NCBI GenBank assembly: GCA_963724265.1
Contig: CAVRTU010000006.1
Coordinates: 24,152-88,151, forward strand
Length of the DNA stretch: 64,000 nucleotides
DNA from: an uncultured Gemmatimonadales bacterium
Lineage (GTDB): Bacteria > Gemmatimonadota > Gemmatimonadetes > Gemmatimonadales > GWC2-71-9
Direction of reading: 5' to 3'
A model generated the notes under the pieces. That model searched no databases and had not been told where the DNA came from. It saw nothing but the letters and a program-made list of their open reading frames with translations. Below are positions 3,249 through 49,836 of this stretch, piece by piece (position 1 is the first letter of the stretch; every line of letters starts with the position of its first letter). The position numbers were made by a program, and so were the translations under genes.

Positions 3249-6200
3249 TGACGATCCCGATCCTGCTCGACGCCTTCGAGCAGACGCCATTCGCGCGGGA
3301 ACTCGTCTCACGCCTTCCAGGGCGGGGGACACTGCTCCGGCTCGGAGGGCTGCCGGGAAGCAGCGGGGCCGCGCTGGCCGCGTGGCTGTCGCGGGCGCAG
3401 CCGCAGCGACTGGTGGTGGTGGTGACCGGATCTCCCGGGGAGGCGGAGCGCTGGCTCAATGATCTCCAGCACCTCGGTGCGGTCGCAGCTCGCACTGTAT
3501 CCGCAGCGTGAGGGGCTGGGCGAGGAGGAGCCTCATTTCGAAATCGCAGGAGAGCGGGTGGAGACTCTCGCCTCGGTGCTCGAGGGGAAGCTCCGGCTGC
3601 TGGTGACGACGGCGCGCGCGACGGCGGAGCGCAGCCTCGTGCCCGCGGCGCTGGCGAAGCGGCGACTGGTTCTCGCCGCGGAGGCACCGGAACCTCTCTC
3701 GCTCGGGGAGGCGGTCGCACGTCTGGAGGAGATGGGCTACCGGCGGGTCGTCGACGGTCACCGAGGTGGCGGAGTTCAGCGTCCGCGGCGGCATCATCGA
3801 CGTCTACGGATTCGGGATGGCCCAGCCGGCCCGCGCAGAATGGTGGGGCGATCGGCTGGCTTCGCTCAGGGCGTTCGACCTGACCAGCCAGCGGTCGCTG
3901 GAGCCGCTGGATGCGGTGACGGTCCTGCCGATTCGGGCCGCCGGGAGGGGGGCAGGGGGGCCCTGAAGGACTCCCTGACGGTCGCGGCGGGGCGGCCGAT
4001 GGAGCGGAGCGGCGAACCCTGCTGGAGCTGCTGCCGCCGGATGCGCTGCTGATCGAGGAGGCCGCCGAGTCCGAATCGCGAGGAAGTCGAACGTGCCTGG
4101 CGCGAGGCGGAGCACCACCTCGAGGTGGCCCGCCGCCTGGGCGAGGAGACGCCGTCGCGCGAGGCGCTGTTCGAGCCGCCGGCGGAGTGGCGTGCCCGGC
4201 TGGAACGTCACCCGAGGCTCACGCTGCGCGAGGAACCGGCGGACGCTGCAGGCCGGCTTCCTGCCACCGGAGCGGATCGACCGGGACCTGAACCGGCTGC
4301 GCGGGCTCCTGGGCGGCGACCTGCAGACGCTCATCCTCTGCGACAACGAGGGCCAGAAGGAGCGGCTCGACGAACTGCTGCGCGATGGCGCGCGGGGGCC
4401 GATCCGCGCGACGCTGGCGGTCGGGGCGCTCGAAGCGGGATTCGTGATGCGGACGCCTCCGGGTGCTCACCGATCACGAGGTCTTCCGCCGGGCCCGCCG
4501 GCTCCGGCGGTCGCGGCGGTACCGGCAGGCCGCCCCCTCGGCCGCGACCGGCACGCTGAGCAGCGGCGATTACGTCGTGCACCTCGACCACGGGATCGGG
4601 ATCTATCGCGGGATCCAGACCATCCAGGTCGGCGAGGCCACGCTGGAGGTGATGGTCCTGGAGTACGAGGGCGGCGACCGGCTCAACGTTCCCGCTCTAC
4701 CGGATCGACCAGGTCGAGCGGTACCGGGCCGCGGGCGATGACGGCGACCGGCCGCCGCCACGGCTGCACCGGCTGGGCGGCAACAGCTGGCAGCGGGTCC
4801 GCGACCGGACCCGCCAGGCGATCCAGCAGATGGCGGCGGAACTGCTCGACCTCTACGCCAGGCGGCAGGTGGCGCGGGGATACACCTTCCCGCCGGATAC
4901 CCGGTGGCAGCGCGAGCTCGAATCGGCCTTCCTCTACGAGGACACGCCGGACCAGCGGCGGGCCACCGAAGAGGTGAAGCGGGGCATGGAGGACGCGCGC
5001 CCGATGGACCGCCTCCTGGTCGGCGACGTCGGCTACGGAAAGACGGAGGTGGCGGTGCGGGCGGCGTTCAAGGCGGTGCAGGGCGGCAAGCAGGCGGCGG
5101 TGCTGGTGCCCACGACGCTGCTGGCCGACCAGCACGGCCGGACCTTCGGCGAGCGCCTGGCCGATTTCCCGGTGAAGGTGGTCGTGCTGTCCCGGTTCCA
5201 GACGGCGAAGGAGCAGAAGTCGATTCTGGCGGCGGCTGGCCCGGGGCGAGATCGACGTCATCATCGGGACGCACCGGCTGCTGTCGAAGGACGTCGTGTT
5301 CAAGGATCTCGGTCTCCTCATCGTGGACGAGGAGCACCGCTTCGGGGTCAGGCACAAGGAGCGGCTCAAGGAACTGCGGCTCGAGGTGGACGTCCTGACC
5401 CTGACGGCGACACCGATTCCACGGACCCTGCACCTGTCCCTCGCGGGACTCCGGGACCTGAGCCTGATCGAGACGCCGCCGCGCGATCGCTCACCGGTGC
5501 TCACCTTCATCGAGCCCTGGGACGACGGACTGCTGGAGGAGGCGTTCGCCCGCGAGCTGGACCGCGGCGGGCAGGTGTTCATGGTCCACAACCGGATCGA
5601 GACCATCGACACCATCGCCGCGCGGGTGCGTCACCTGGCGCCGCGAGCCACCGTCGAGGTCGCGCACGGCCAGATGGCGGCCGACCGACCTCGAGGAGGT
5701 GATGCACCGATTCGTCCAGGGCGAGGTCCAGATCCTGGTCTCGACCCTGATCGTCGAGTCGGGACTCGACGTGCCCAACGCGAACACGATGGTGATCCAC
5801 GACGCCCACCGGTTCGGACTGGCGCAGCTGTACCAGCTGCGCGGCCGGGTGGGGCGGAGCCATCGCCGCGCCTACTGCTACCTGCTGGTGCCGGACGCCA
5901 TCGACCGCGATGCGGAAGAACGGCTCAAGGTGCTGGAGCATCACAGCGACCTCGGCGCGGGCTACCGCATCGCCCTGAAGGACCTGGAGCTGCGCGGCGC
6001 GGGCAACCTGCTGGGCGCGGAACAGTCGGGCCATGCGCATGCGGTGGGATTCGACCTCTACCTGCGCTGGCTGGAGGAAACGGTGAAGGCGCTCCGGGGC
6101 CAGGGCAAGGCGGACACCCTGGCACCGCCGGAGGTCGTGCTGGACCGTCCGGCCCACCTGCCGGACAGTTACGTGCCCGATGACGACTCGAAGCTGGACT

Positions 6201-6584
6201 TCTACCGGCGACTGGCGCGGGCCGCGGCACCCGGCGAGATTGAACCGCTCCGCGACGAACTCCGCGAGCGGTTCGGACCCCTGCCCGAGGAAGCAGAGAC
6301 ACTCCTCCACATGGCCCGACTCCGCGCCCTCGGCGCGGCGCTGGGCCTGCAGCATGTGCTGGTCCGGGGCGACGAGGCCCGCCTGACCTTCCGGGCCGGC
6401 GCCACCCCGCGGCTGGCCGCGCTCACGGCGGCGCTGGACGACGTGCAGCTGGCGGCCGACGTGCGCCGGACCGTGCCGCTGGCGCTGCGGCTCGAGCGGC
6501 TGGGGGGCGAGGCCCTGCTGCCCGGCGCTGGTGCGGGCCCTGCGGGCCGTGGTGAGCGGACCCACCGCGGTCAAGACGACCTGA
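3248..6584 (+). CDS. mfd: Transcription-repair coupling factor Mfd (several frameshifts)
   Basis: Fragments in successive frames: [84 protein letters not shown]. Confidence 0.95.
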
Positions 6585-6634
6585 GTACCGCCGCGCGCCC
6601 CGCGCGCGACGGATCAACCTGAATCGGAGAAGGC

Positions 6635-8087
6635 ATGCGACGGACCTGGTTGTGGACGGGCCTCCTGGCCCTGGTGAGCGGGTGTGAGCTGTTCAGCGCC
6701 CACGCCGATGTGGCCGCGACGTCGGCGGGCGCCAAGCTCGAGTCCCAGGCAGCTGGCGGACTTGATGAGCAAGGTGAAGGGCATCCAGCCGACCCGGGCG
6801 GGCGCCGACTTCGTCATCCGCTACTGGACCGATTACATCCTCTTCGCCAACGCGGTGGCCGACAAGGTGAATTTCGCCGACTCGTCGGTCGTGTCCGAAG
6901 CGATGTGGACCGAGATCACCGAAATGCGCGGAGTGGCGTGGCACGACACCCTGCTGGCCCACCGGGCCGGGATCACGGACGCCGCGGTCGACAGCGCCTA
7001 CAACCTCGGCCAGATCCGCGGCCTGCAGCACATCCTCATCCGGGCCGACTCGGGGTCGCCGGACAGCGTCATGGCCAAGGCCCGCAAGCGGATCGACGCG
7101 ATCTACGCCCAGGTCAAGGCCGGCGCGAATTTCGCCAAGCTGGCCGAGAAGGAATCGGAGGACCCGGGCAGCAAGAAGCAGGGGGGCATGTTGGAGGTCG
7201 GCCCGCGGGGCCGGTTCGTGACACAGTTCGACGCTGTCGGATGGGCGCTCGGGCCGGGGCAGATCAGCCCGGTCATGAAGACCCGGTTCGGCTTCCACAT
7301 TGTCCGCCGTCCGCCGCTGAGCGAGGTCCGGGAGGAGTTCCGCAAGTACCTGGTCCAGTCGGCCAGCGCGGCGCTCGATTCGGTCTACCTCGACAGCCTG
7401 GCGATCCGCAACCAGCTCACCGTCGTGCCCGATGCCGCCACACTGCTCAAGGACGCGATGAAGAACCCCGAAGGGGCGCTCAAGGACCAGAAGCCGGTGG
7501 CGACCTTTACCGGCGGGGTGGTGGAGATGTCGACCCTGGTGCGCTGGGCCGGCGCGCTGCCGCCGCAGTTCACCAGCCAGCTGCGCCAGGGCGACGACTC
7601 GACGCTGCGCCAGTTCGTGAGGGTCATCGGCCAGAACGTGCTCCTGATGCGGCAGGCCGACTCGGCGGGCATCAGGATCAGTCCGGAACAGTGGACGGAC
7701 GTCCACGACCTCTTCCTGACCCAGGTGGACACGGTGAAGAACCTGCTGGGCATCACGGGACAGGGCTTCGTGGACTCCGCGGCGACCGGAGCGCGGAGCC
7801 AAGTGCTCGCGGCGCACGTGCTGGACTACATGAACCGGCTGGGCGCCGGCACCGCCAAGCTTCGCCCGGTGCCGTTCCAGCTCGCCCCCATGCTCCGGCT
7901 CCGGTATCCGCACCAGACGGTCCGCGCGGGGGTGGACGAGGCGATCCGCTACATGACCGACCCCGGCCGTGTCGCCGATTCGACCTCGCACCCGGAGAAC
8001 CAGCGGCGCGGCCCCCTGATTCAGCCGGGTGGCCCCCCGCCGGTACCGCAGGGCGCGACTCCGGCGCCCCCTGCCGCTCACCCATGA
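6635..8087 (+). CDS. Peptidyl-prolyl isomerase (parvulin/rotamase domain) lipoprotein (frameshift near 6745)
   Basis: Lipobox LVSGC; HILI...FAKLAEKESEDPGSKKQGG...ISPVMKTRFGFHIV. Confidence 0.8.
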
Positions 8088-9506
8088 GCCGATGGCGGCT
8101 GGCAGGGCTCCTGGTGGCGGGTGTGGTCATCAGCGGTGCCCGACCGGGGGGCCTGGCGGGACAGCAGGAGGCGCTGGTGGCCGACAGCACGCCGGCCGGC
8201 CGCTGCGACTCGGCCAGCTCGGTCGACCGGATCGTCGCCGTGGTGGGCGATGCCCCGATCCTGGCCTCCCAGCTGGAGGAGGAGGCCTACCAGCGGCGCT
8301 CGCAGAGCCCGCCGCTCCCTCCCGGCGAGGCGCCGCTCAAGGCCTTCTGCCACGAGGTGCTCACCGACCTGGTCAACACCGAGATCCTGGTCCAGGTCGC
8401 GGAGCGGGACACCGCGATCAAGGTTACGGACCAGGAGGTGGCCGACGGCGTGGAACAGCAGGTCCGCAATGTGCGGTCGAAATTCGCCTCGGAGCCGGAG
8501 TTCCGCGCCGAGCTCAAGCGGGCGGGATTCGCCACGCCCGAGGAGTACCGGCGCTGGCTGACCGACCAGCAGCGCCGGAGCGCACTGCAGAGCCAGCTGA
8601 TCTCCAAGCTCACTGCCGAGAAGAAGCTCAAGGACGTCTTTCCGACCGAATCGGAGATGCGGGCGTATTACGACGTCCAGGAAGGCGCAGCTGGGTCAGC
8701 GGCCGGTGACGGTATCCTTCAGCCAGGTCATCATCGCGCCCAAGCCCACGGCGGCGGCCAAGGCCCGGGCGCTGGCGCTGGCGGATTCGATCGTGGTGGC
8801 GCTCCGGAAAGGGGCAGACTTCGCGGTGGCCGCCAAGAGGTTCTCGAGCGATCCCGGATCGAAGGACCAGGGGGGCGACCTCGGGTGGTTCCGGCGCGGG
8901 GTGATGGTGCCGCCCTTCGAGGCGGTGGCCTTCCGCCTCAAGCCGGGAGTGATCTCCGATCCGGTCGAGACGGTGTATGGATACCACATCATCGAAGTGC
9001 TCCGGATCCAGCCCGGCGAGGTGGACGCCCGCCACATCCTGATCATGCCGGAAATCACGGCGGCCGACGCTGACAGCTCGGCGGCGCTGGCCGACCGGGT
9101 CCGGGCGATCCTCGAGGCGGGGGGGGCGATGGACTCGCTGCAGCGCCTCTACCACGATCCCGACCTGGACAAGGACGCGGACGAGGTGCCGCTGGACAAG
9201 TTGCCGCAGGACTACCAGACCGCGATCGGCGCGGTCCCGCCGCCGCCGCCCGATCCCACCGCGGACAGCACGCTGGCGCTGGGGAGCTACCACCCCCCGG
9301 TGATCCTGCCGGTGTTCACCCTGACGGACGCCGATCCCAACCGGCGACGCCGGGTGGTGCTGCAGCTCAAGGCGCGCCGGGCCGAGGGGGACATCCTGTA
9401 CCAGGACGTGAAGGAAAAGATCCGCGATGCCCTGGGGCACGAGCTGGCGGTGAAGAACTACCTCGAGCACCTCCGGAGCCGCACCTACATCGACCTCCGA
9501 TACTGA
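8084..9506 (+). CDS. surA: SurA-like chaperone/PPIase (frameshift near 8680)
   Basis: VDRIVAVVGDAPIL N-domain; FSSDPGSKDQGGDLGWF, PVETVYGYHII; lies upstream of pdxA as is typical. Confidence 0.8.
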
Positions 9507-9510
9507 GCCG

Positions 9511-10490
9511 ATGAGCACCCGCCGTCCCCGCCTCGCGGTCACGCTGGGTGATCCCCGCGGCATCGGCCCCGAAATCGCCGCAGTCGCGCTGGCCCGGCCA
9601 CTGCCGGCGGAGGTGACCGTGCTCGGCGCCGACGAGCAGGTCGCCGCGGTTCCGGCGGACCGGAGGATTCCGGTCGGGCCCTGGGGGCTGGGCAGCGGCG
9701 AGGAGGGCCCCGCCGGTGGCCGGGCCGGCCCGTCGCGCGTGGTCCGCGCCGGCCAGATCGCGGGCCACGCGGTGGAAGCGGCGGTGCGGCTCGCCCTCGC
9801 GGGAGAAGTCGATGCGGTGGTCACCGCACCTGCCCACAAGCACGCGCTCCAGCTCGCCGGATTTCCCTATCCCGGACATACCGAGTGGCTGGCCCACCTG
9901 GCCGGCGACGTGGACGTGGCGATGATGCTCGCCGCGGACAAGTTGCGCGTGGTCCTGGTCACCACCCACGTGGCGCTGCGAGACGTGCCGACGCTGCTGA
10001 CCACCGACCGGGTGATCCGCACGGGCCGGGTCACGGCGAAGGCATTGCGGGAGTGGTGGGGCATCGCCAACCCGCGGCTGGCGATCTGCGCCCTCAATCC
10101 GCACGCGGGGGAATCAGGGTTGTTCGGAGACGAGGAGCCGCGCATCCTGGCGCCCGCGGCGCGTGCGCTGGGCGCGGCGGGCCCGCTGCCGGCGGACACC
10201 GTCTTCGTGCGGGCGATGCGAGGAGAGTTCGACGCGGTGCTGGCGCCCTACCACGACGTCGGGATGACGGCGATCAAGGTCGCCGCCTTCGGGCGGGCGG
10301 TCAACGTGACCCTGGGGCTCCCCTTCGTGCGGACCAGCCCCGATCACGGGACCGCGCTGGACATCGCCGGCACGCGGAACGGCCGATGCGGGGAGCATGC
10401 GGGCCGCGCTGGAACTGGCGGTCGAACTTTGCTCGAGGGAGCAGGGAGCCCAAAGGACTCCCTTCGGTCGCAGTGAGCAGGGAGCGGTAA
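9511..10490 (+). CDS. pdxA: 4-hydroxythreonine-4-phosphate dehydrogenase (frameshift near 3' end)
   Basis: TLGDPRGIGPEI, GHTE, LNPHAGE, YHDVG, GLPFVRTSPDHGTALDIAG. Confidence 0.93.
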
Positions 10491-10517
10491 CTGCAACACC
10501 CGTTCACCGCTCCCTGC

Positions 10518-11162
10518 TCACTGCTCCCTCTTCACCGCGCCCTCCAGTTTCGCCATCAAGTCCAGATGGGCTTCCAGCTTCAGCTTCTGGCTGGCCCGGT
10601 TGGCCACCAGCACCGCCCGCACCTCGAGTACGGTCTCCCGTTCTTCCAGCCCGTTGGCCCTCAGCGTATTGCCGGTGTCGACCAGGTCCACGATCCAGTG
10701 GGCCAGTCCGAGCAGGGGTGCAACTTCCACCGATCCCGTGACCTCGATGATGTCCACCGGGCGGCCGCGGGCCCCGAAATGAGCCCGGGCGAGGCGGGGA
10801 TACTTGGTCGCCACCTTCGCCGTCATTCCTCCCGGCAGCGATGGGTAGGGGGCGCCCGCGGGAGTGGCGACGGTCAGGCGGCAGTGGCCGAAGCCGAGTT
10901 CGAGCGGCTCGAGTACGTCAGGCTCGGTCTCCCGGAGCACATCGCTTCCCGTGACGCCGAGGTCGGCCGCGCCGGACTCGACGTAGACCGGGACATCACC
11001 CGGCTTGACCACCAGGAACTGGAGATTGGGCGCCGTCGAGTCGAGCAGCAGCCGGCGTCCCGGATCGCCGCTGAGCCGGATCCCCGCGCGGGCGAAGAGC
11101 TCGACCGCGGGATCGTAGAGCCTCCCCTTGGCCAGGGCGACACGGAGCGGGGCCGGTGTCAT
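10518..11162 (-). CDS. hisG: ATP phosphoribosyltransferase, short form
   Basis: ALAKGRL, DVPVYVESGAADLG, VATKYP, GSVEVAPLLGLAHWIVDLVDTGNTLRANGL. Confidence 0.95.
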   Translation of the reverse strand: MTPAPLRVALAKGRLYDPAVELFARAGIRLSGDPGRRLLLDSTAPNLQFLVVKPGDVPVYVESGAADLGVTGSDVLRETEPDVLEPLELGFGHCRLTVATPAGAPYPSLPGGMTAKVATKYPRLARAHFGARGRPVDIIEVTGSVEVAPLLGLAHWIVDLVDTGNTLRANGLEERETVLEVRAVLVANRASQKLKLEAHLDLMAKLEGAVKREQ

Positions 11163-12116
11163 GCGCCACCGCTCGCGTCGGCCACGGTGTCGAGGTCCAT
11201 GGCGAACCCCACCGCGGGCCTCGGGGCGCCGTAACGCGCCACCAGGGTGTCGTAGCGGCCCCCGGCGCCCGCCGCACGGCCCGCCCCCGCCACGAACAAT
11301 TCGAAGTGAATCCCCGTGTAATAGTCGAGACCGCGGACTTCGCCGAGGTCGTAGACCAGGTGCCGGCGGTCCTCGGGAGTGAGCGCCGCATCAATGGCGA
11401 GCAGGTGGGTGAGGGCGGGCCGGGCGGGTGCAGGCGCTTCCCTCAAGGCGGCCTCGAGGACGGGTCGCCGGCCGATCACGAAGGCGAGATCGGCCAGCGC
11501 CCGGACCGGGACGGATTCACCGGCCAGGGCCCGGGTCAGGCTGCCCCGGTCCTTCCGGTCGATCCAGCGCCGGACCTCGTCGCGCCGCCCGGGCTCCAGC
11601 GCCTCGAGCCCCGGGGCCAGGGCACCGACATGGCCGAGATTGACCTGGAATTCGCCCAGCCCGGCGGCATGGGCCAGCGCCAGCGTCAGCCGCAGGATCT
11701 CGATGTCTCCCGCCAGGCCCGGCTCCCCGATCAGTTCGGCACCCAGCTGCAGCGTTTCCCGCGGACCGCCACCCCGCTCCGGCTCCTGCCGGAAGACGGG
11801 GCCGGTATAGGCCAGCCGGAGCGGGCCGGCCTGTCCGGCAAAGGCCGTCGCAGCCATCCGGGCGATGCTGGCGGTGAAGTCGTACCGCAATGCGAGGATC
11901 CTCCCGTCGCGGTCCACCAGGCGGACCAGCCGCTCGGCCACCGGCGGGCCAGCGGCCCGGAGGAAGATCTCCTCGTACTCGACAGGTCGGGGTGATCGCT
12001 TCCTGGTAGCCGGCAGCGGCAAGAATGGCCATTCCATCCCGCTGCAGCCCACGTCGCCGAGCGGCCGAGGGGCCGGTCAGGTCGATCGAGCCGGGGGGAG
12101 TGAGGGACGGGAGCAT
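11159..12116 (-). CDS. hisZ: ATP phosphoribosyltransferase regulatory subunit (frameshift near 11985)
   Basis: LALRYDFTASIAR, QLGAELIG, DYYTG, GGRYDTL, AVGFA; adjacent to short hisG. Confidence 0.9.
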
Positions 12117-12125
12117 GGCGGGCTC

Positions 12126-13448
12126 TTATGGTATCGCTGCAGCGCCGGCGAGGTAGCGGACCGTCTTCACCCGAAGGCCTTCCATCTCCGCGATCTCGAA
12201 GACGTCGCGGCCCACGGTGACCCGGTCGCCGGGGCGGGGCAGGCGGCCGAGCTGGCCAAAGAGATAGCCGCCCAGCGTCGAGTAGTCGCTGTCTTCCAGG
12301 GAAAGATCGTACTCGGTGTTGAGGTCGGTGAGGGCGATGCCCCCCTCGATCAGTGGCGCCCCTTCGGTCGGAGTCGCCAGCCGGTCGGTCCTGTCGTACT
12401 CGTCGAAGATGTCGCCCACGATCTCCTCGAGCAGGTCCTCCATCGTCACCAGGCCCGCCGTCCCGCCGTACTCGTCGAGCACGATGGCCAGGTGGACCTT
12501 GAGCCGCTTCATGTCGGCCAGCACGTCCTCGACCTCGCGAGTGCCGGGGACGAAGAGCGGAGGCCGCATGATCTCCGCCACCCGGGCGCCGGGCTGCGCG
12601 CGGAGGGCCGTCAGGATATCCTTGGCGTGGACCACGCCGCTGATCTCGTCGAGGGAGACGGCGTAGACCGGGTAGCGGGAGCGGCGGGCCCGGGCCACCA
12701 CGTCGGCCGCCTCCTCGACGGTGAGGTCGGCCGCGAGCGCGGTCATCTGGGTCCGCGGCGTCATCACCTCGCGGGCGGTCTTCTCGCTGAACTCGAAGAC
12801 GCCGGCCAGGAGACGGGCGTCCTCCTTTTCCAGCGAGCCGCCCTCTTGGCTTTGCTCCACGAGCATCCTTATTTCTTCAGGAGAGTGCATCCGGCTCCGC
12901 TCGTCGAGAGGGCGGACGCCGATGTGCCGAAGCACCCAGTTGGCCGTGCCGTTGAGGACGGTGATGGCGGGCGCGACGACCCAGGCGAAGGCCATGAGCG
13001 GGGCGGCCACCCAGCCGCTCAGGGTTTCGGGATGGACCAGCGCGAGCGCCTTGGGGAGCAGCTCTCCGAGCAGAATGAGGACGAAGGTGATCAGCCCGAA
13101 GGCCAGCGGGGTGGCCAGGGTCAGCGTGGGGACCGGCCCCAGGTTGGGCGGCAGCTTGATCAGCGCGTCGCGAAGGATGCGGGCCAGCGCCGGCTCACCG
13201 AGCCAGCCCAGCGCCAGGCTGCAGAGGGTGATCCCGATCTGGGTCGCGCCGATGTAGCGGGGCAGGGTCCGGACGACCCGGATGGCCAGGAGGGCGCGGC
13301 GGTCGCCGTTCTGGGCCAGCTCCTCCAGGCGGGTGCGGCGGGCCCCCACCAGGGCAAACTCCGCCGCGACGAAGAATCCATTCAGCAGGACCAGCGCCAG
13401 GACGGCCCCCAGGCCGACCACCACGGGAGTACCGCTTGAGCCTTCCAT
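12126..13448 (-). CDS. HlyC/CorC (CNNM-CBS) family transporter
   Basis: LNGFFVAAEFALV, QIGITL, GELLPK, AREVMTPR, DEYGGTAGLVTMEDLLEEIVGDI. Confidence 0.92.
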   Translation of the reverse strand: MEGSSGTPVVVGLGAVLALVLLNGFFVAAEFALVGARRTRLEELAQNGDRRALLAIRVVRTLPRYIGATQIGITLCSLALGWLGEPALARILRDALIKLPPNLGPVPTLTLATPLAFGLITFVLILLGELLPKALALVHPETLSGWVAAPLMAFAWVVAPAITVLNGTANWVLRHIGVRPLDERSRMHSPEEIRMLVEQSQEGGSLEKEDARLLAGVFEFSEKTAREVMTPRTQMTALAADLTVEEAADVVARARRSRYPVYAVSLDEISGVVHAKDILTALRAQPGARVAEIMRPPLFVPGTREVEDVLADMKRLKVHLAIVLDEYGGTAGLVTMEDLLEEIVGDIFDEYDRTDRLATPTEGAPLIEGGIALTDLNTEYDLSLEDSDYSTLGGYLFGQLGRLPRPGDRVTVGRDVFEIAEMEGLRVKTVRYLAGAAAIP

Positions 13449-13494
13449 GCGGGCGAACGTTAGCGGGGCGGGAGCCCCGCCGCGAGGTGGCCCG

Positions 13495-14784: not shown

Positions 14785-14802
14785 AGGCGGCAGAGGCGGA
14801 CG

Positions 14803-16170: not shown

Positions 16171-16234
16171 CCAGGAAGGATGCAATCCCAGCGGCCCGAA
16201 ACGCGTATCGCATTACCACGACGATCATCCTTTT

Positions 16235-16266: not shown

Positions 16267-16337
16267 TGCCCCCGCCCTGATCCCCGCCTATATATGCCGC
16301 GCGTAAGGGGTTGTTTCGTCGTCTCGAGAAGGGTGAA

Positions 16338-21260: not shown

Positions 21261-21334
<74 letters not shown>

Positions 21335-26667: not shown

Positions 26668-26839
26668 GTCGAACGGCCGTACGTCGCAGTTGTGCATCAT
26701 GCCCTGATTGTGTCTCCGTGTCGCGGGGCTGAGAGCCCCGCCTGGCCCATCGCCGCTTCGCGGCCGTCTCAGTGGACTACCTTCGGTTCGTCCGTCCGCC
26801 CCTCTGCCCCCCCGCCCCCCTGCCCCCCCATATTCCCGC

Positions 26840-37765: not shown

Positions 37766-37774
37766 AACGCGGGG

Positions 37775-38522: not shown

Positions 38523-40069
38523 TGGTGATCCTCCCGTAGGGCCCGTTTGAGAATCTTCCCTGATCCGGTGCGGGGCAGCTCGGACAGCATTCGAATCCTG
38601 CGGATCTGCTTGTATCCCCCCAGCCGCTCCCGGCAGAAGGCCATCAGCTCCTCGACGCTGGCGACGCTGCCCGGACGAAGGACGACGGCGGCGGCCACCA
38701 CCTCGCCCCAGACCGGGTCGGGGGCACCATACGCAGCCGCTTCCAGCACGGCGGGGTGGCCATAGAGCACCGCCTCCACCTCGGTCGAATAGACCTTCTC
38801 GCCGCCGGTGATGATGATGTCCTTGCGGCGGTCCACGATGTTCACGTACCCCTCGCTGTCCAGGACGGCCAGGTCGCCGGTGTGGAGCCAGCCGTCCACG
38901 AACGCCTCCGCGGTGGCCTCGGGCCGGTTCCAGTACCCCTGGGTGACCGTCGGCCCCCGGACCTGGATCTCGCCCACCGTCCGCTCGTCCGCCGGCACCG
39001 GCTGGCCCGCCTCGTCCACCACCCGGAGCTCGACCGCGATGAAGGGCCGCCCCGTCTTGGCCCGCCACGCCATCTGCTGCTCGGCGGGCAGCCGGCGGAG
39101 GTGGGCCTTGAGGATCGAGAGGGTCAGGTAGGGACTGGTTTCCGTCATGCCATAGGTCTGTACGTATTCGCAGCCGAAGGTTTCCACGATCGCCGCCACC
39201 ACGCTGGGCGTGATCGGGGCCCCGCCGCTCAGGATCAGCCGGAGCGCCGAGTAGTCGAAGCGTCCCCGGTCGGGGTGTTTGACCATGAGGTTGAGCATCG
39301 TGGGGACGAGATTGGTGAGGGTGATTCTCTCCCGCTCGAATCCGGCCAGGGTCTCCCGCGGATCGAAGCGCGGAAACATCACGTGGCAGCCGCCGACCCA
39401 GGTGATGGCGAAGCTGGCCCAGGCGTCGGCCAGGTGGAACATCGGTGCCACGTGGGCCCAGCGGTCTCGGTCGGTCAGCTGCAGCTCCGCCACGGCGGCC
39501 AGCGCGTGGATCGTGACGTTCCGGTGGGTGAGGATCACTCCCTTGGGGTGGCCCGTGGAGCCGCTGGTGTAGTAGAGCTGGGCGATGTCGGTCTCGGCGA
39601 CAGGACGGGGGGCGAAGGCCGAGGCGGGGAGCGTCTCGAGGGCGTACTGGGGCAGGCGGAGGTCGGTCGGAGGGACGTCAGCGCCGGCCCAAAGGAGGCC
39701 GCGCACCTCGCCGGGCTCCGCGAGGACGGCTCCGGCCAGCCCCGCCATGGCGGGATCGGCGATGAGCCAGGTGGAGCCGCTGTCGCCCAGGATGAAGCCG
39801 AGTTCGGCGGGGCTGAGGCGGAAGTTGAGGGGGACCAGCACGGCGCCCAGTCCCGCCGCCGCGAAGTAGGCCTCGAGATAGGGCAGGCCGTTGGGGAGCA
39901 GCGCGGCGATCCGGTCCCCGGGTCCCACTCCCTCGGCCAGGAGGAAGCCCGCCAGCCGGTCCACCCGGGATCCGAATGCTGCGTAGTCGAGGCGGAGGGG
40001 ACCGTCCACGACTGCTTCGGCCCCGGGATGGAGGAAACGGGCCCGGAGCAGGAGACTCCAGAGATTCAC
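38519..40069 (-). CDS. Long-chain fatty acid--CoA ligase (AMP-binding)
   Basis: YTSGSTGHPKG, YGMTE, WLHTGDL, DRRKDIIITGGEKV, LPRTGSGK. Confidence 0.92.
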   Translation of the reverse strand: MNLWSLLLRARFLHPGAEAVVDGPLRLDYAAFGSRVDRLAGFLLAEGVGPGDRIAALLPNGLPYLEAYFAAAGLGAVLVPLNFRLSPAELGFILGDSGSTWLIADPAMAGLAGAVLAEPGEVRGLLWAGADVPPTDLRLPQYALETLPASAFAPRPVAETDIAQLYYTSGSTGHPKGVILTHRNVTIHALAAVAELQLTDRDRWAHVAPMFHLADAWASFAITWVGGCHVMFPRFDPRETLAGFERERITLTNLVPTMLNLMVKHPDRGRFDYSALRLILSGGAPITPSVVAAIVETFGCEYVQTYGMTETSPYLTLSILKAHLRRLPAEQQMAWRAKTGRPFIAVELRVVDEAGQPVPADERTVGEIQVRGPTVTQGYWNRPEATAEAFVDGWLHTGDLAVLDSEGYVNIVDRRKDIIITGGEKVYSTEVEAVLYGHPAVLEAAAYGAPDPVWGEVVAAAVVLRPGSVASVEELMAFCRERLGGYKQIRRIRMLSELPRTGSGKILKRALREDHQ

Positions 40070-40091
40070 GTTGACCGGGGAGTTGCCGCGA

Positions 40092-40454
40092 TCAGCAGGT
40101 CACTGACCAGTCCACCGGGGAGACCTTGCGGCACCGCCGGCACTCGATCGTCCTGGGCTGGCCATCGAAGAACTGCCGCTCGGCGCAATGAGGGCAGACG
40201 GCGTAGGTGTTGTCGCTGACATTGTGCTGGCCACCCCAGGTCGGACGCATGACCCCGGTGCGGACCACGACGCTCCAGTGGCTGGGCGGTTCGTTGCGGA
40301 CCAGGACCATGTCCCGCTTGAGGGACACCTTTTCCTGTCCGACCTGGATGACCACCTGGTCGGCGGCGCCCTCCTCGACCACCGGGTACCAGGCGCCGCG
40401 CCGGAGGGTGGCGGCGAACTTGTCCTGGGTCCGGGCCCAGCCGAGGGATGGCAT
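40092..40454 (-). CDS. Hypothetical zinc-ribbon protein
   Basis: LRRGAWYPV...YAVCPHCAER...CRRC. Confidence 0.6.
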   Translation of the reverse strand: MPSLGWARTQDKFAATLRRGAWYPVVEEGAADQVVIQVGQEKVSLKRDMVLVRNEPPSHWSVVVRTGVMRPTWGGQHNVSDNTYAVCPHCAERQFFDGQPRTIECRRCRKVSPVDWSVTC

Positions 40455-40593
40455 GGGTTCTATGATACGTTCGGCGGGGCGCTTACGCGATAGGGCGGCC
40501 GGGGGGCGGGGGGGCTGCTGGGGCACCGCTTGACTACCCGACAAAAAAGGTCGTAATTGAAATTCGTCCCAAGTGTCCGAGCGAGGCAGAGCC

Positions 40594-41487
40594 ATGACTA
40601 CCACAGCCCCCATCCCCAGCGTATCCCCCATCGAGCAGCGGGGGTATGCCCATCCCGAAGTCCTGGTTTCGACCGACTGGGTGGCCCAACACCTGGCCGA
40701 TCCGACTATCCGGCTGGTCGAGTCCAACGAGGACCTGCTGCTCTACGAGACGGGCCACATCCCGGGGGCGGTCAAGCTGGACTGGGTGACCGACCTCAAC
40801 GACCCGATCCGCCGAGACTACCTCGACCGCGAGGGGTTCCAGCGGCTGGTGAAGGCCAAGGGGATCAACAAGAACACGACGATCGTTCTGTACGGCGACA
40901 AGAACAACTGGTGGGCGACCTACGCCTTCTGGGTCTTCCGGCTCTTCGGGGTGGAGAATCTCCGGATCCTCGATGGCGGCCGGGCGCGCTGGGCGGCGGA
41001 GGGGCGCCCGCTGGAGATCACGGTGCCGAGCTACCCCGCGGGGGACCTGGTCGTGGGGCAGCGTGACGACAAGGCCGTTCGCGCCTTCCGGGACGAGGTC
41101 CTGGCCCACCTCAGGCGCCGGGGCCAGCTGGTGGATGTGCGGAGCCCCGAGGAATTCCGGGGAGAGCGGCTCCACATGCCCGACTATCCCAACGAGGGGG
41201 CGCTGCGGGGCGGTCACATTCCCGGGGCGAAGAGCATCCCCTGGGCCCGGGCCATCAACCCCGAGACGGCGACCTTCCGGCCGGCGGGTGAGCTCCGGAC
41301 CCTCTACGAGCAGGAGCAGGGGCTCAGGCCGGACGAGGAAGTGATCGCCTACTGCAGGATCGGCGAGCGCTCGTCGCACAGCTGGTTTGTGCTGACCTAT
41401 CTGCTGGGATTCGGGAAGGTCAGGAACTACGACGGGTCGTGGACCGAGTGGGGCAACTCTGTTGGGGTTCCCATCGAGCGGCCATAA
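40594..41487 (+). CDS. Two-domain rhodanese / thiosulfate sulfurtransferase
   Basis: [42 protein letters not shown]. Confidence 0.93.
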
Positions 41488-41492
41488 GAACT

Positions 41493-41716
41493 AGCCGCAG
41501 ACGAGCGCAGATGAACGCAGATAACTGAGTTGTTGTCTGCGTTCTCTGCGTTTATCTGCGGCAAACCAACGACCCGGAAGAGAAAACGCAGCGACGCAGA
41601 GGACGCAGAGCGCCTCAAGTGCGGCCAATCGTCCGATCTGGCTGTTTATCAGAGTCAATGGACTGCGCTTGGGCGACGTAATCGAATTGACACCGGCCCC
41701 CTCTGTGTCTCTGCGA
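41493..41716. repeat. (CGCAGA)-type tandem repeat hairpins in an intergenic region
   Basis: gccgcagacgagcgcagatgaacgcagat...tctgcgttctctgcgtttatctgcggc; acgcagaggacgcagag...ctctgtgtctctgcg; related copies at 43572-43690 and 62290-62337. Confidence 0.7.
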
Positions 41717-41717
41717 T

Positions 41718-42143
41718 TCAATTCTTGGAAGCCAAATCACGAACCATCCGCTTGACCCGCGCCAGCACCGCCGTCAGGCCGTGCGTTCGCGTCATTCCCA
41801 GCAGCTCCCCCAGCCCCAGCCGGTCGAGGAGGTCGTCGGGGATCGCCGCCACCTCGGCCGGCGTGGCGTCGTTGACCGCTCCCTCCAGGATCGAGACGAA
41901 CCCCCGGACGGTCGGGGCCTCGTGGGGCGCGTCGGCGTAGAGCCGGGCCTTCCCCCCCTCCAGCTCGACATACAGATAGACCGCCGACTGGCACTCGTGC
42001 ACCAGGTTCTCCCCCCGGTCCCTCGCCTCGGCGTAGCGCGGGGGAAGGGGAGGGAGCTTCTTGGCGAAGTGCAGCAGCATGTCGAGCCGAGTCTGCGGGT
42101 CGGCCGAGTGAAATCGCACGACGGTCTTCACGAAGTCGCTCAT
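41718..42143 (-). CDS. sufE: SufE-family sulfur acceptor
   Basis: VHECQSAV, EAPTVRGF, LGLGELLGMTR; next to a sulfurtransferase. Confidence 0.85.
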   Translation of the reverse strand: MSDFVKTVVRFHSADPQTRLDMLLHFAKKLPPLPPRYAEARDRGENLVHECQSAVYLYVELEGGKARLYADAPHEAPTVRGFVSILEGAVNDATPAEVAAIPDDLLDRLGLGELLGMTRTHGLTAVLARVKRMVRDLASKN

Positions 42144-42279
42144 TGAGGGATTTCACCCTCCAATTTGACGTCGCCGGCTAAAGCCGACTAGTCCATTCGG
42201 TCGCTGCGCGGCTTTCACGGCCGACCATCGCAGGTCTGCCCCTGCGCCCGACCGCCTGTCCGCCCGTCCGCCTGCCCCC

Positions 42280-43523
<1,244 letters not shown>

Positions 43524-43837
43524 GGAGTGCTCATTGGTGAGGGATGTCTTCAAATGTCTGACAATCGTTGAAACACAGAGGCACAGAGGGTGCCGTTGTC
43601 AGTTTAACTACATCGCGTGAGCATGCATCGGTATTTCTTGTTAACTGCACAGCTCATTGGCCGCAGATGAACGCAGAAACGCAGAAGATCACGAACACAC
43701 AGGTCCACCATTAGACTCGCATGTCTCACGACGCCCCCGATCCGATTGCCTCGCTGCAGCACAATGCGGCCGCCAGGGGCGGGCGTCCATCGGCCGTCTC
43801 TGCGTTTCATCATCAGTCGAACCATATTCCCAATATA

Positions 43838-45591
43838 ATGGCTGCCACTCCCCCCTCCCTCGCCCTCGCCTGCCTGGTTCACGCCGGGTTCGAGTCGTAC
43901 CAGGCCCAGTTCCAGCTGGTCACCCGGCGGGCGCAGGCCCGGTTCGTCGGGCGCGACTGGCTGGGGGCCCAGCGGGACGCCCACGAGCGGCTGGGGCTCT
44001 ACAGCCAGTTCACCGACTGGGTGGTCCGTGGAGCTCGACCGGGAGCTGGGCGGCAGCCCCGGCGACAGCACCCTCTGGAGCGACGCCCGGCACGCCTACC
44101 TCGCCCTGGCCCTCCGGCGCGACGACGCCGAGCTGGCACTCACCTTCTACAACAGCGTCGCCCGCCGGGTGCTCAGGACCGTGGGTGTCTGGCCGGCGGT
44201 GGAGTTCCTTCCCGAGGACTTCGCCGGGATCACGGCGCCGCCGGCCAGCCAGGCGGTTCGCTCTGACGCCCGTCGGCCCGGGGGGACTGGCCGCGGCTCC
44301 TGGGCGACGTGCTCCGCGGACTACCCTTCGCCGCCGCCTTCGCCGACCTCGAGGGAGACGCGAAACTGGCGCGCCGCCTCGCTGGCCCGAGACCTCAGGA
44401 AGCTGGCGCCCGGCGCTTCGGTCGATGCCCTCGAGCTGGTGCCGGCGCCGTTCTACCGCAACAAGGGGGCGTACCTGGTCGGCCGGCTCGTCGCCGATGA
44501 AGGTCCGGATCCCCCTGGTCCTGGCGCTGGTCCACCCGCCGGAGGGAATCCGCCTCGACGCCGTCCTGACCACGCCGCAGGAGGCCAGCGTCGTCTTCTC
44601 CTTCACCCGGAGCTACTTCCACATCGAGCCGGTCTGCGCCGCCGCGCTGGTCGCCTTCCTGGCCGAGCTGATGCCGTTGAAGCCGATCGACGAGCTCTAT
44701 ACCGCCATCGGCTGCCACAAGCACGGCAAGACCCTGCTCTTCCACGCCCTCCTCCGGCAACTCGAGGATCCCGAGGCCCGGTTCGAGATCGCCGAGGGGG
44801 AGCCGGGGCTGGTCATGGTGGTGTTCGCGCTGCCGAGCTTCAACGTGGTCTTCAAGATCATCCGCGACCACTTCGGCGCTCCCAAGACCACCACCCGCGA
44901 AGAGGTGATGGCCAAGTACCGACCTGGTCTTCGTCCACGACCGGGTGGGCCGGCTGGCCGACGCCCAGGAGTTCGAGAACCTGACCTTCCGGAAGGATCG
45001 CTTCTCGGCGGAGCTGCTGGAGGAGCTGGGGCGCGAGGCGGCGGGGAGTGTCCGGATCGAGGAGCGACAGTGTCGTCGTCGCACATCTGTACACCGAGCG
45101 CCGGGTGACCCCGCTCAATCTCTTCCTCAAGCAGGCGCCGCCGGCCCAGGCCCGCGACGCGATCCTCGACTACGGCAACGCCATCCACGACCTCGCTGCC
45201 GCCAACATCTTCACCGGCGACATGCTGCTCAAGAACTTCGGGGTGACTCGGCAGGGGCGAGTGATCTTCTACGACTACGACGAGCTCTGCCTGCTCACCG
45301 ACGTCCACATCCGCGATCTGCCCGGCGCCCCGGGACGAGAGCGACGAATGGGGAGCGGAGCCCTGGTTCTCGGTGGCCGAGCGGGATGTCTTCCCCGAGG
45401 AGTTCCGCCACTTCCTGGTCATCCCCGGCCCCCTGGGCGACGCCTTCCTCTCGGCGCACGCCGATCTGCTGACGCCCGAGTTCTGGCGGAGGATGCAGGA
45501 GCGGCGGTCGGAGGGCGAGCTGGCCGACGTCTTTCCGTACAGGGCAGAGCGGAGATTGGCGGATCGAAGGATTGAAGGATCGGAGGATTGA
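43838..45591 (+). CDS. aceK: Isocitrate dehydrogenase kinase/phosphatase (frameshifts)
   Basis: [78 protein letters not shown]. Confidence 0.93.
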
Positions 45592-45698
45592 GGGATTGAA
45601 GGATTGGGGGAGACATTTCGATTGTCCGGCCGCGCCGCACCCGTTACTCTACCCGCGGTCAAATCCATCAATCCTTCAATCCGCCAATTCGTCAATCG
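45563..45698. repeat. (GAAGGATT)n / (AATCCTTC)n inverted octamer arrays
   Basis: gaaggattgaaggatcggaggattgagggattgaaggatt...aatccatcaatccttcaatccgccaatt. Confidence 0.75.
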
Positions 45699-45701
45699 TC
45701 G

Positions 45702-46172
45702 GTGACCATCCAGATCTTCGGCACCAAGAAGAGCCCCGCCACCCGGGCCGCCCTCCGCTTCTTCGCCGAGCGGCGGATCCAGGTGCATTTCGTGGATCTG
45801 GCCGAGCGGGCGGCGTCGGTGGGGGAGCTGAGGCGGTTTGCCCAGAAGTTCGGGGTGGAGGCGCTGCTGGACCGGGAGGGCCGGCGCTTCGAGGAGCTGG
45901 GGCTCAGGGCCGCGCGCTACGGCGAGGACGCCTGGCTGACCAAGCTGGCCGACGAACCGCTGCTGCTCAAGCATGCCGCTGGTGCGAAATCAGAATCAAC
46001 TGACGATCGGGGAAGCGGTGGAGACCTGGAAGACGTGGCTGGCTCTGAACAATCGGCCAGATTGCTTCGTCGGTCGCTTGGGACCTCTCGCAATGACAGA
46101 ACTCACCGCGGGTTCTGTCATTGCGAGGCCACGCAGCGCCGAAGAGTCTCAGACTCTCGTCGCATCGAGCTC

Positions 46173-46176
<4 letters not shown>
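45702..46176 (+). CDS. ArsC/Spx/YffB-like thioredoxin-fold protein (frameshift; C-terminus runs through a REP element)
   Basis: IQIFGTKKS...RAALRFFAERRI...GELRRF...PLLLK/MPLVRN. Confidence 0.75.
46060..46150. repeat. GTCATTGCGAG-type REP/palindromic element
   Basis: agattgcttcgtcg...ctcgcaatgacagaac...gttctgtcattgcgagg. Confidence 0.75.
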
Positions 46177-48123
<1,947 letters not shown>

Positions 48124-48138
48124 ACCGCTCGATTCTTC

Positions 48139-48259
48139 GGTCATTGCGAGGCCTCGAAGTGGCCGAACCCGCAGAGTCTGATGAGGGCGAGGCCCGAGGC
48201 GATCTCACCGGCCAGATTGCTTCGTCGGCCCCTCGGGGCCTCCTCGCAATGACAGAACT
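48139..48259. repeat. GTCATTGCGAG-type REP/palindromic element
   Basis: gtcattgcgagg...agattgcttcgtcggcccctcggggcctcctcgcaatgacagaact. Confidence 0.78.
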
Positions 48260-48274
48260 GGGGGCTTGAGCTCC

Positions 48275-49171
48275 GTGACTCGAATCGATCGCCAGATGGC
48301 GCATCCTCGCCACCGCGATCTCTGTTTTCCACCGGCGGCGCCGGGATCAAGCTGGCCCACTTCACCCCGTGGCAGGTGGCCGGGCTTCCGGTCGGGGATC
48401 GCGGCGATCGCGGTGCTCTTCCTGGTGCCCGCGGCACGGCGGATCGAGAGTAAGGCGACGCTGGGCAAGGCGTCGATGGTGGGGGTGGCGTACGGGGCGA
48501 CGCTGATCCTCTTCGTCCTCTCCACCCGGTTCACCACCGCCGCCAACGCGATCTACCTCCAGGCCGTGGCCCCGATCTACATTCTCCTCCTCGGCCACTG
48601 GCTGCTGCACGAGCGGATCGTCGGCCGAGACTTGGGCTTCGTGGCTGGTGATGGGGCTGGGGATGGCCTGCTTCTTCGTCGGGGCGCCCGGTGGCCACCG
48701 CCACCGCTCCCGCACCCGGCGCTGGGCAACATCCTGGGCGCCGTCTCCGGGATCACCTTCGCCTTCCTGATCGTGGGGCTGCGGTCGATCGGGAAGGGAG
48801 GCGGGGTCGGGGCCATGGCGGTGGTGATCGGCAACATCTTCGCCTTCCTGGCGGCGCTGCCGATGGCGCTGCCGCTGGGCTCACACCCCTTCACCGACTG
48901 GATCGTGCTGCTCTACCTCGGCGTCTTCCAGATCGCGCTCTCCTACTCGCTCCTGGCGGGGGCGATCACCCACGTGCCGGCGTTCGAGGCCTCGCTCCTC
49001 CTGCTGCTCGAGCCGGTGCTCAACCCGGTCTGGGCCTGGCTGATGCTGGGGGAGCGGCCCAGCGGCGCTGGCGGGGTGGGGGCGGCGCTGATCCTGGGGG
49101 CGATGCTGGTCCGCTCCTGGTGGGACCGGAGCGACACCGGTGCCGCCCCGGAGGAGATCGTGGCCGGATGA
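48275..49171 (+). CDS. DMT/EamA-family transporter (frameshifts)
   Basis: FSTGGAGIK, TTAANAIYLQ, LLGHWLLHER, LLEPVLNPVWAWLMLGE. Confidence 0.85.
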   Translation: MTRIDRQMAHPRHRDLCFPPAAPGSSWPTSPRGRWPGFRSGIAAIAVLFLVPAARRIESKATLGKASMVGVAYGATLILFVLSTRFTTAANAIYLQAVAPIYILLLGHWLLHERIVGRDLGFVAGDGAGDGLLLRRGARWPPPPLPHPALGNILGAVSGITFAFLIVGLRSIGKGGGVGAMAVVIGNIFAFLAALPMALPLGSHPFTDWIVLLYLGVFQIALSYSLLAGAITHVPAFEASLLLLLEPVLNPVWAWLMLGERPSGAGGVGAALILGAMLVRSWWDRSDTGAAPEEIVAG

Positions 49172-49836
49172 CGGCACTCATCGAGACGGTGCGCGTAAGG
49201 GGGGGCCGAGCCCCGCTCTGGGAGCTGCACCAGGCCCGGATGGCGAAGAGCTGCCTGGAGCTCGGCGTCCCCAGGCCCATAATGGAGCCTCCGCCGGAGG
49301 GGCCGGACCGGGTGGTGCAGTACCTCGTGGTGATCGGGGAGCAGCGCGCGGAGCCCGAGGAGCCGGCCGGGATCAAGGAAAGGCCGGTGGGGAGCACGGC
49401 GCCGGTCCGGCTCATCGTCTCCGGGGAGGTCCATTTTCCCTACCCCCACAAGACCACGGAGCGGGGACAGTTTGATCGGGCGTTGGAGGAGGCCAGGGCC
49501 CTAAAGGACTCCCTGTCGGTCGCGGACGACGCGGTACTGCTGACGGCCACCGGTCATGTGGCGGAGTGCGCCATCTGGACCCTGTTCTGGTGGGAGGGGG
49601 AGAAGGTGGCGACGCCGTCGCTCGAGCTGGGGGTGCTGCCCGGGGTGGCGCGGGCAAGGCTGGGCCGGCTCCTGGGTGGCTTGCGGGAGCGGAGGGTCGG
49701 GGTGGATGAACTGAAGAGGCAGAGCCTTTTCCTGGCCAACGCCGCCCGCGGGGTGGTGCAAGTGGCGTCGCTGGATGGAGATCCGGTGCCACTGGACCCC
49801 CGGACGGTGAGGCTCCAGGAGTCGTTTTGGCCTTGA
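49168..49836 (+). CDS. Class IV aminotransferase / ADC-lyase-like protein
   Basis: LIETVRV, HQARM, HKTT, VAECAIWTLF, GVLPGVAR, FLANAARG. Confidence 0.8.
   Translation: MTALIETVRVRGGRAPLWELHQARMAKSCLELGVPRPIMEPPPEGPDRVVQYLVVIGEQRAEPEEPAGIKERPVGSTAPVRLIVSGEVHFPYPHKTTERGQFDRALEEARALKDSLSVADDAVLLTATGHVAECAIWTLFWWEGEKVATPSLELGVLPGVARARLGRLLGGLRERRVGVDELKRQSLFLANAARGVVQVASLDGDPVPLDPRTVRLQESFWP

Follow-up and report, generated by a model that had tools for sequence, protein, structure and literature searches.

The mini-element and its three copies in the window

The window analysed here is a stretch of 64,000 nucleotides (nt) of DNA from an uncultured Gemmatimonadales bacterium. It is part of contig C6 of the genome designated G000 (3.68 Mb, 68-69% GC, 6 contigs), and coordinates given without a contig name are window positions. 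Three copies of a very short sequence, here called the mini-element, lie in mfd, at the 3' end of pdxA and in a gene for a class IV aminotransferase (Table 1). A reading made from the letters alone (the sequence-only reading) had placed three copies at these sites and had taken them for a very small dispersed element inserted into genes and repeat arrays. The copies were found there, each preceded by GC and ending in GC, and the register had to be moved one base to the left (CCC...GGTCG). When the window was searched with the core AAGGACTCCCT-N(0-3)-CGGTCGC, 3 matches were obtained, and any match was seen in 0 of 100 dinucleotide shuffles.

Table 1. Positions of the mini-element copies and of their host features in the window
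Feature	Position	Strand	Description
mfd	2262..6622	+	at least 5 open reading frames (ORFs) in different frames; DEAD, Helicase_C and TRCF domains in consecutive pieces
G-rich octamer-like host array of copy 1	3936..3960, resumes 3985-3998	+	upstream of copy 1
Element copy 1	3961..3984	+	24-nt form (CCCTGAAGGACTCCCTGACGGTCG), within mfd, in G-rich octamer-like tract
pdxA	9511..10476	+	as called in the assembly; PF04166 at 2.8e-87
Heptamer-array hairpin	10434..10530	+	5' arm GAGGGAGC-AGGGAGC-[element]-AGTGAGC-AGGGAGC-GG, loop TAACTGCAACACCCGTTCA, 3' arm CCGCTCCCTGCTCACTGCTCCCTC
Element copy 2	10449..10470	+	23-nt form minus the T at position 4 (CCC-AAAGGACTCCCTTCGGTCG), in the 5' arm of the heptamer-array hairpin, pdxA 3' end
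Element copy 3	49499..49522	+	24-nt form (CCCTAAAGGACTCCCTGTCGGTCG), in frame in the class IV aminotransferase, no surrounding array

Orthologous sites without the element were present at all three loci in all three same-genus genomes (G033, G129 and G236). In mfd, orthologues have GGCGGGCA-type octamers at the site, and copy 1 is missing from these three genomes as a clean 28-nt alignment gap inside the G-rich octamer tract. The copy is translated as LKDSLTVA in ORF 3459-4052. A ~92%-identical contig of a related strain (run X1) spans 3787-4136 with 348 nt against 350 nt in the window and has thus retained the mfd copy. The same contig is without 4 bases in the G-run just upstream of copy 1, and leaving out these bases would turn the 28-nt gap into an in-frame one of 24 nt.

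At pdxA, the two arms of the hairpin are complementary once the element and one heptamer are taken out of the 5' arm. The assembly has an extra base near 10380, which is missing from three related metagenome contigs, and because this base shifts the frame, the ORF call ends pdxA at 10476. The frame that matches the orthologues is open through the element and, with the 22 nt removed, ends in ...EQGAVSRER* with a stop at 10488-10490. Removal of the copy also rejoins the GGGAGC/AGTGAGC heptamer array, so that both effects foreseen by the sequence-only reading hold. In the spacer after pdxA, each of the three same-genus genomes has a different tandem array and no element. In contigs of related strains, 10443-10509 is replaced by 9 nt (X1) and 10443-10545 by 45 nt (X2 and X6); array and element thus co-vary at this site. 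The split mfd and the extra base in pdxA, with an assembly completeness of 57.7%, point to many assembly indel errors and not to real pseudogenes.

The third host, ORF 48691-49836, matches Aminotran_4, and copy 3 is translated in it as ALKDSLSV. Its orthologues in the three same-genus genomes are without the copy, the window having a net 15 nt more. Five tRNA genes (49897-50499) lie directly downstream of this gene, and a sixth tRNA is found at 21261-21334.

Family size and consensus

Searching the whole genome yielded 85 copies of the exact core, so that the further copies for which the sequence-only reading had proposed to search are abundant. A relaxed search, tolerating no more than 3 substitutions in CCTAAAGGACTCCCT, the 15 bases at the start, and 1 in CGGTCGC, the last 7, gave 140 copies in G000 against 1 in a reversed-genome control. 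The consensus is matched exactly by 67 of the 140; 74 lie on the plus and 66 on the minus strand, and 87 are 23 nt and 53 are 24 nt long. Chance or artefact was rejected as an explanation on the basis of the shuffle and reversed-genome controls and because the element is also present in independent short-read metagenome-assembled genomes (MAGs), in isolate genomes and in contigs from peat metagenomes.

The unit can be written as CCCTAAAGGACTCCCT-N(1-2)-CGGTCG, with one variable central base in the 23-nt form (T, G, C or A) and two in the 24-nt form (GA, GG, GT and others). Apart from these bases and position 4, nearly all positions are invariant. One subfamily has two linked changes (AAGGGCTTCCT). 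The 24-nt form can be read as a 12-mer (CCCTNANGGNCN) that is repeated directly but imperfectly, its halves CCCTAAAGGACT and CCCTGACGGTCG being alike in 8 of 12 bases. At most, the element forms a weak hairpin with a 4-bp stem (AAGG/CCTT; -4.3 to -6.0 kcal/mol).

No Rfam family reached its gathering score in the window. For 20 loci from other phyla there was none at E<=0.1 save an unrelated tRNA and weak noise from miRNA models. An origin from a universal RNA or gene was rejected, since 5,426 E. coli genomes searched at E<=10 contained no match and no Rfam family was hit.

Filled and empty sites

The same-genus genomes are merely 65-81% identical to the window, and because this divergence is too high, the exact boundaries of the element were taken from paralogues. 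A hairpin repeat that resembles a miniature inverted-repeat transposable element (MITE), AGATTGCTTCG...CGCAATGAC, has 53 genome-wide matches, 9 of which are exactly 23 nt longer than the empty classes; the internal lengths rise from 15 to 38, from 20 to 43 and from 22 to 45 nt. The insert follows the 5' stem arm without a gap (GGCCA^CTTCGTGGCC), and an element of the opposite orientation is found at the mirror position. Since reverse copies take the mirror position, the polarity of the element is tied to the strand of the hairpin. In RPT-B, a unit similar to repetitive extragenic palindromes (REPs), the empty site GCCG^AGGCTCC becomes GCCG-CCCTAAAGGACTCCCTTCGGTCG-AGGCTCC when filled.

A single register fits all cases, with a unit that begins CCC and ends GGTCG. 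Between filled and empty paralogues the difference in length is exactly 23 nt, and no base is duplicated. The left flank can be A, C or G, and it is AC, CC or CG when two bases are read. A 2-bp target duplication of GC, which had been considered possible by the sequence-only reading, is therefore not borne out. Since the GC in front of the element is the end of an array unit (GGTGAG^C, GGGAAGG^C), it lends no support to such a duplication. Position -1 is C in 71 of 77 copies of the 23-nt form and in 37 of 44 of the 24-nt form, and the base that follows GGTCG is C in 73/77 and 41/44, respectively. The flanks are G-rich on the element's own strand. Of the target, nothing more is conserved than the C that follows and a tendency for G or C to precede the element. 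Taken as a set, the paired sites show that the element was inserted many separate times, without target duplication and usually immediately 5' of a C.

Host repeats and coding copies

The 24-nt form is nearly confined to octamer arrays (GGGAGGGC, AGAGGGGC), and the 23-nt form is found in heptamer arrays (GGTGAGC, GGGGAGC) and in hairpins, so that the nesting in repeat arrays seen at the window loci is confirmed genome-wide. In G-rich arrays the element always lies on the G-rich strand; in hairpin-forming repeats, such as the MITE-like hairpins, the REP-like units and the attC-like sites, it comes immediately behind a strand of the stem. RPT-B and a second REP-like unit, RPT-C, have two insertion sites each; genome-wide, ~6 of ~19 RPT-B and ~4 of ~16 RPT-C copies are filled. 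The window itself has an empty RPT-C copy at 26722-26764 (CGCGGGGCTGAGAGCCCC-GCCTGGCCCATCGCCGC-TTCGCGGC), in which both known insertion sites are vacant. It also has three copies of the hairpin MITE (46059-46097, 48140-48205 on the minus strand and 48214-48253), all unfilled, and the 48140/48214 pair is inverted and adjacent.

Contig C4 carries a 50-kb array of small same-strand cassette-type genes (C4:1659000-1709000, L124-L126) that encode GNAT, DinB, 4HBT, cupin, glyoxalase, DUF1801, DUF6882 and CBS proteins. Its spacers are attC-like imperfect palindromes, GCCTGAC-CAGCGCTTGCTGC ... GCAGAAGCGCGGGGC-GTYAGGC, each with the mini-element in one arm, and the array resembles a cluster of attC sites without an integrase. 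At these sites the element is an extra segment of one arm, in 1-2 copies, or else the mirror arm holds up to 8 tandem copies with a period of 23. A search of G000 for an integron integrase gave a best score of 93 bits against a cut-off of 265. An integron origin was rejected, as no integrase scored above the cut-off and the copies in other phyla are not in attC-like sites.

It is conceivable that the element does not transpose independently, and that after a few ancient insertions it was multiplied only through gene conversion among homologous arrays and as a passenger of mobile host repeats. The match between the length of the form and the type of array would be explained in this way, as would the CGGTCGA variant that is common to the RPT-B copies, the filling of all attC-like sites at the same position, and the related strains that are without array and element together at pdxA. 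However, there are array-free copies in unique sequence (in the aminotransferase at 49499 and at C2:30188, C4:1059211, C3:210088 and C6:115373), the hairpin MITE has at least 4 distinct flank classes in both orientations, RPT-B and RPT-C are each entered at two sites, both arms of the attC-like sites are occupied, and the same 23-mer lies in unrelated host repeats of other phyla. We consider it improbable that passive spread alone produced the family. What the host sites do show is a secondary spread of the inserted element, which travels passively with a host repeat once it is inside and is amplified in tandem with a period of 23.

Coding flanks were called by GC3-GC2, a crude measure for which the threshold was set above the genome median; by this measure, neither flank was scored as coding for 90 of the 140 copies. 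Eight copies have both flanks coding on one strand; all of them are in sense orientation, and in 7 the frame stays open through the element. A match with 4 mismatches that belongs to these eight is probably native sequence. The peptide LKDSL(S/T)VA is found in frame in three genes (the aminotransferase and two other ORFs) and in mfd, so that the tolerated insert of 8 amino acids (aa) that the sequence-only reading had inferred occurs in at least four genes; an alternative open frame gives PKGL.... Outside the C4 cluster, the copies are mostly sense to the upstream coding flank (42 versus 14), also where both flanks are coding (12 versus 1). Among the most element-dense stretches is C4:940900-946500 (L165), which contains imuB-like (IMS) and dnaE2-like error-prone polymerase genes and has element copies at or inside the ends of both ORFs.

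A bias towards the sense strand of neighbouring genes, together with the many copies just past stop codons in transcribed spacers, would fit spread through an RNA intermediate and reverse transcription, a route reportedly proposed for the small dispersed repeats (SDRs) of cyanobacteria. However, the reverse transcriptase model RVT_1 had no match in G000, the assembly of which is incomplete, nor in 4 of 5 other bearers, and the bias may be inherited from the G-rich host arrays. We hold this route to be very improbable.

Distribution across bacteria

In a sample of the phylum, the core was found in 12 of 401 genomes, all of one family (11/166 besides G000), with 1-8 copies against 85 in G000. 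Even the same-genus genomes have only 0, 0 and 4 copies, G033 and G236 being free of the element. Such counts have to be read with care, as MAGs from short reads probably under-count repeats.

A scan of 185,579 species genomes with the core gave at least 105 loci. For the bare 18-base core, ~69 chance matches are expected in a collection of this size. Among the matches listed, however, 70 of the 105 loci also have the CCT bases that the pattern leaves unspecified and a gap of 1-2 nt, and for these ~0.5 are expected by chance. The 70 listed matches comprise 42 from Gemmatimonadota, 17 from Rhodanobacter and 5 from Brachyspira; the remainder are one each from a Bacteroidetes, an Anaerolineaceae, a cyanobacterial, a deltaproteobacterial and two other proteobacterial MAGs. 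The other 35 listed matches fit chance, including 9 from Streptomyces in one conserved gene. In targeted samples, 10 of the 38 Brachyspiraceae have the core, with 1-11 copies and a spacing of 23 nt between two of these, and so do 4 of the 101 Rhodanobacteraceae (5-6 copies each); a control pattern had 0 matches in both families. Among 301 evenly sampled cyanobacterial genomes there was one with the core, and the control pattern also had one match there.

Copies in the other phyla lie between housekeeping genes (purE, mnmG, htpG, pyk, ksgA, lptF/G, glpK, scpB, psbD, purB). They sit in loops or junctions of local, lineage-specific hairpin repeats, and the Brachyspira DNA at these places has 27-33% GC. 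Rhodanobacter has a diverged second form of the element, inverted in a hairpin loop. At three Brachyspira loci (L149-L151), AT-rich spacers contain the GC-rich carrier of the element ~100 nt behind a conserved TTGACA...TATAAT-like promoter sequence, and the carrier could be transcribed as a small structured RNA. In the cyanobacterial MAG a perfect single copy (L162:1497-1519) lies between ycf4 and psbD (Photo_RC), ~60 nt upstream of the latter; this copy is likely to be in the 5' leader or promoter region.

Near-invariance across phyla might also mean that the sequence is mainly a functional cis-element, such as a protein binding site or an RNA-level signal, which is kept by selection and disperses only secondarily. 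Its persistence in Brachyspira with 27-33% GC, where a neutral sequence of 57% GC should decay, is what one would expect of such a signal, and the direct-dimer architecture of half-sites, the bias to the sense orientation and the promoter-like TTGACA/TATAAT in front of some Brachyspira carriers can be read in the same way. Against this, copies lie inside coding regions and inside other repeats and form tandem runs of up to 8, their numbers vary from 0 to 85 within one genus, with a patchy distribution among close relatives, there is no Rfam match, and the neighbouring genes share no function. A primarily regulatory role thus has a low probability in our estimate.

Comparison with known elements

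The SDRs are the group to which the sequence-only reading had likened the element. Elhai et al. 2008 (Genome Res 18:1484) are said to have described eight such repeats (SDR1-8) of 21-27 nt in Nostoc punctiforme and its relatives, and SDR4-6 reportedly have a conserved secondary structure backed by compensatory changes. To our knowledge, the mechanism of the SDRs was never solved, and we know of no enzyme for them. The mini-element falls into the same size class of 21-27 nt and is likewise present in many near-identical copies (140, of which 67 equal the consensus). Like the SDRs, it is embedded in tandem heptamer arrays and in repeats resembling mini-transposons, it takes precise and defined positions, it occurs in tandem or adjacent copies, and its recent spread is patchy. 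Unlike the SDRs, it spans Gemmatimonadota, Gammaproteobacteria, Spirochaetota and single MAGs of other phyla, has no support from compensatory changes, matches its 24-nt form to octamer arrays and invades attC-like sites. The likeness in behaviour proposed by the sequence-only reading thus stands, but the element is not an analogue confined to one other phylum, as it is found nearly unchanged in several. It shares the behaviour of the SDRs, probably differs from them in sequence, differs in host range and is all but missing from the sampled cyanobacteria. That a single one of the 301 cyanobacteria has the core speaks against the element being one of the abundant SDRs of Nostoc. Literature searches with the element sequence, SDR terms and heptamer repeats gave no description of the element, the sequence matches being coincidental primers or unrelated; the sequences of SDR1-8 were outside this comparison.

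The Rickettsia palindromic elements (RPEs), which are palindromic, ~100-150 bp long and confined to Rickettsia, insert in frame into genes. The mini-element is similarly tolerated as an in-frame peptide insert in housekeeping proteins, but it adds only 24 nt or 8 residues, and most of its copies are intergenic.

SDRs are said to be found solely in Nostocaceae (PMC5861425), and their insertion is described as precise, for example for SDR5 within HIP1 (PMC4390886). For Xanthomonas and Nostoc, Rehm et al. 2015 (PMC4692102) describe G-rich heptamer repeats that follow stop codons and lie on the sense strand, and TAACTGA heptamer repeats are given as common to Beggiatoaceae, cyanobacteria and Bacteroidetes (PMC4679880). 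The host arrays in G000 are of the G-rich kind, with units of 7-8 nt in variable number, mainly after stops or between genes. Those repeats, however, are arrays, whereas the mini-element is a fixed sequence of 23-24 nt inserted into such arrays.

A MITE derived from a DDE transposon would differ from the mini-element, the ends of which (CCCTAAA... and ...CGGTCG) are not inverted repeats and which has no target-site duplication. The absence of target duplication is shared with the IS200/IS605 elements; in contrast to these, the mini-element has no specific tetra- or pentanucleotide target and no bias in the direction of replication.

A closer comparison is with the REPs and their hairpin-forming doublets (REPINs), which are associated with REP-associated tyrosine transposases (RAYTs; Bertels and Rainey 2011, PMC3116915). 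The mini-element is also short, abundant, mostly extragenic, associated with hairpins and inserted into or next to repeats, and copies lie beside all three Y1 genes of G000. However, REPs are strong palindromes that typically form inverted doublets, are lineage-specific and are inherited together with a cognate RAYT, whereas the mini-element is barely palindromic, is mostly single or in tandem, crosses phyla and does not track Y1 genes. Neither a stable palindromic hairpin nor a co-occurring cognate RAYT flanked by the repeat was found, the element lying only downstream of the Y1 genes and inside other repeats.

The three Y1_Tnp genes of G000 (~150 aa; C4:720995-721447 on the minus strand, C4:1183439-1183786 on the plus strand and C5:180148-180495 on the minus strand; L132-L134) nevertheless suggest a model in which the element is of REP type and is mobilised by these RAYT/IS200-like Y1 tyrosine transposases, the substrate being hairpin DNA in single-stranded form. 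Such an enzyme would account for insertions that leave no duplication and are coupled to the polarity of a hairpin; in addition, all 3 genes have a reverse-oriented copy 40-65 nt past the stop codon, and the first 9 bases of the element (CCCTGAAGG) are similar to the apex of the RPT-B hairpin that flanks Y1 genes. Two of the three genes are bracketed by inverted copies of REP-like repeats of their own, RPT-B or RPT-C. At two Y1 genes, the upstream repeats are the empty counterparts of the filled downstream ones, and a minority of all such repeats are filled; proximity to Y1 genes is therefore explained by a preference of the element for RPT-B and RPT-C, and we do not take it for a cognate pairing. 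RPT-B and RPT-C appear to be the real REPs of the Y1 genes, invaded by the element. The model is further weakened by the weak hairpin and the lack of a replication-strand bias, and by the lack of Y1_Tnp in three of five bearers from other phyla: Brachyspira pilosicoli (11 copies), Rhodanobacter (5) and the cyanobacterial MAG (1). In G401, G402, G129, G263 and G361 the contigs that carry the element are not those with the Y1 genes, and the element-free G033 and G236 have 5 and 4 Y1 matches. We regard mobilisation by these transposases as unlikely.

A probable non-autonomous insertion element

The explanation that we favour, and consider fairly probable, is that the mini-element represents a family of very small non-autonomous insertion elements for which the enzyme would be supplied in trans. 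The element would enter DNA that is transiently single-stranded or folded, and would do so in a strand-specific manner. Candidate substrates are hairpins, attC sites and, in transcribed arrays, the G-rich non-template strand; the sense bias fits entry into such DNA, but it could equally come from the G-rich host arrays. Insertion would be carried out in trans by separate machinery, and this machinery, or selection, may keep the sequence near-invariant from Brachyspira with 27% GC to Gemmatimonadota with 69% GC. An autonomous parent element was rejected, as Pfam scans beside the copies revealed only ordinary genes.

Several results weigh against this explanation. No enzyme could be tied to the element, since neither Y1/RAYT nor reverse transcriptase genes track its presence, and Pfam scans beside the copies found no transposase among 46 ORFs from other phyla and 37 ORFs from four element-dense regions of G000, all of which were ordinary genes. 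As candidate vehicles, 72,556 plasmids had no match and viral contigs had 0 exact matches; 22 phage records, mostly from one Enterococcus siphophage group but also including Streptococcus phage SP-QS1, agree with the element at 22 of 24 bases (E=0.8), probably by chance. Folding of the consensus, suggested as a check by the sequence-only reading, was no better than that of shuffles (z -0.29 to 0.65), and no paired, compensatory changes were seen among the variable positions (4, 9, 12 and 16). There is also no orientation bias relative to local GC skew (24/21/20/16 on C4; 9/8/7/7 on C5). Because the form matches the array type and CGGTCGA is common to the RPT-B copies, a part of the copy number has to be assigned to hitch-hiking or conversion and not to fresh insertion. 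Insertion itself is known from the comparison of filled and empty sites and not from events caught directly, and statements on reading frames are weakened by the low quality of the G000 assembly (completeness 57.7%).

A bolder extension, which we put forward tentatively, is that the element is a cross-phylum "nano-transposon", the smallest mobile DNA of fixed sequence, ranging from Spirochaetota to Gemmatimonadota. It would enter folded or displaced single-stranded DNA strand-specifically by means of a possibly widespread host function or one that moves horizontally, possibly the same kind of machinery that acts on the cyanobacterial SDRs.

For the genomes that carry it, such inserts confound assembly and gene calling when high-GC genomes are obtained from metagenomes. 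They add 8 residues to proteins, alter gene ends, as in pdxA, and occupy attC-like recombination sites. With its sharp ends, its many filled and empty pairs and the culturable Rhodanobacter bearers, the family makes it possible to test how a sequence of 23 bases is copied into new sites and what keeps it invariant.

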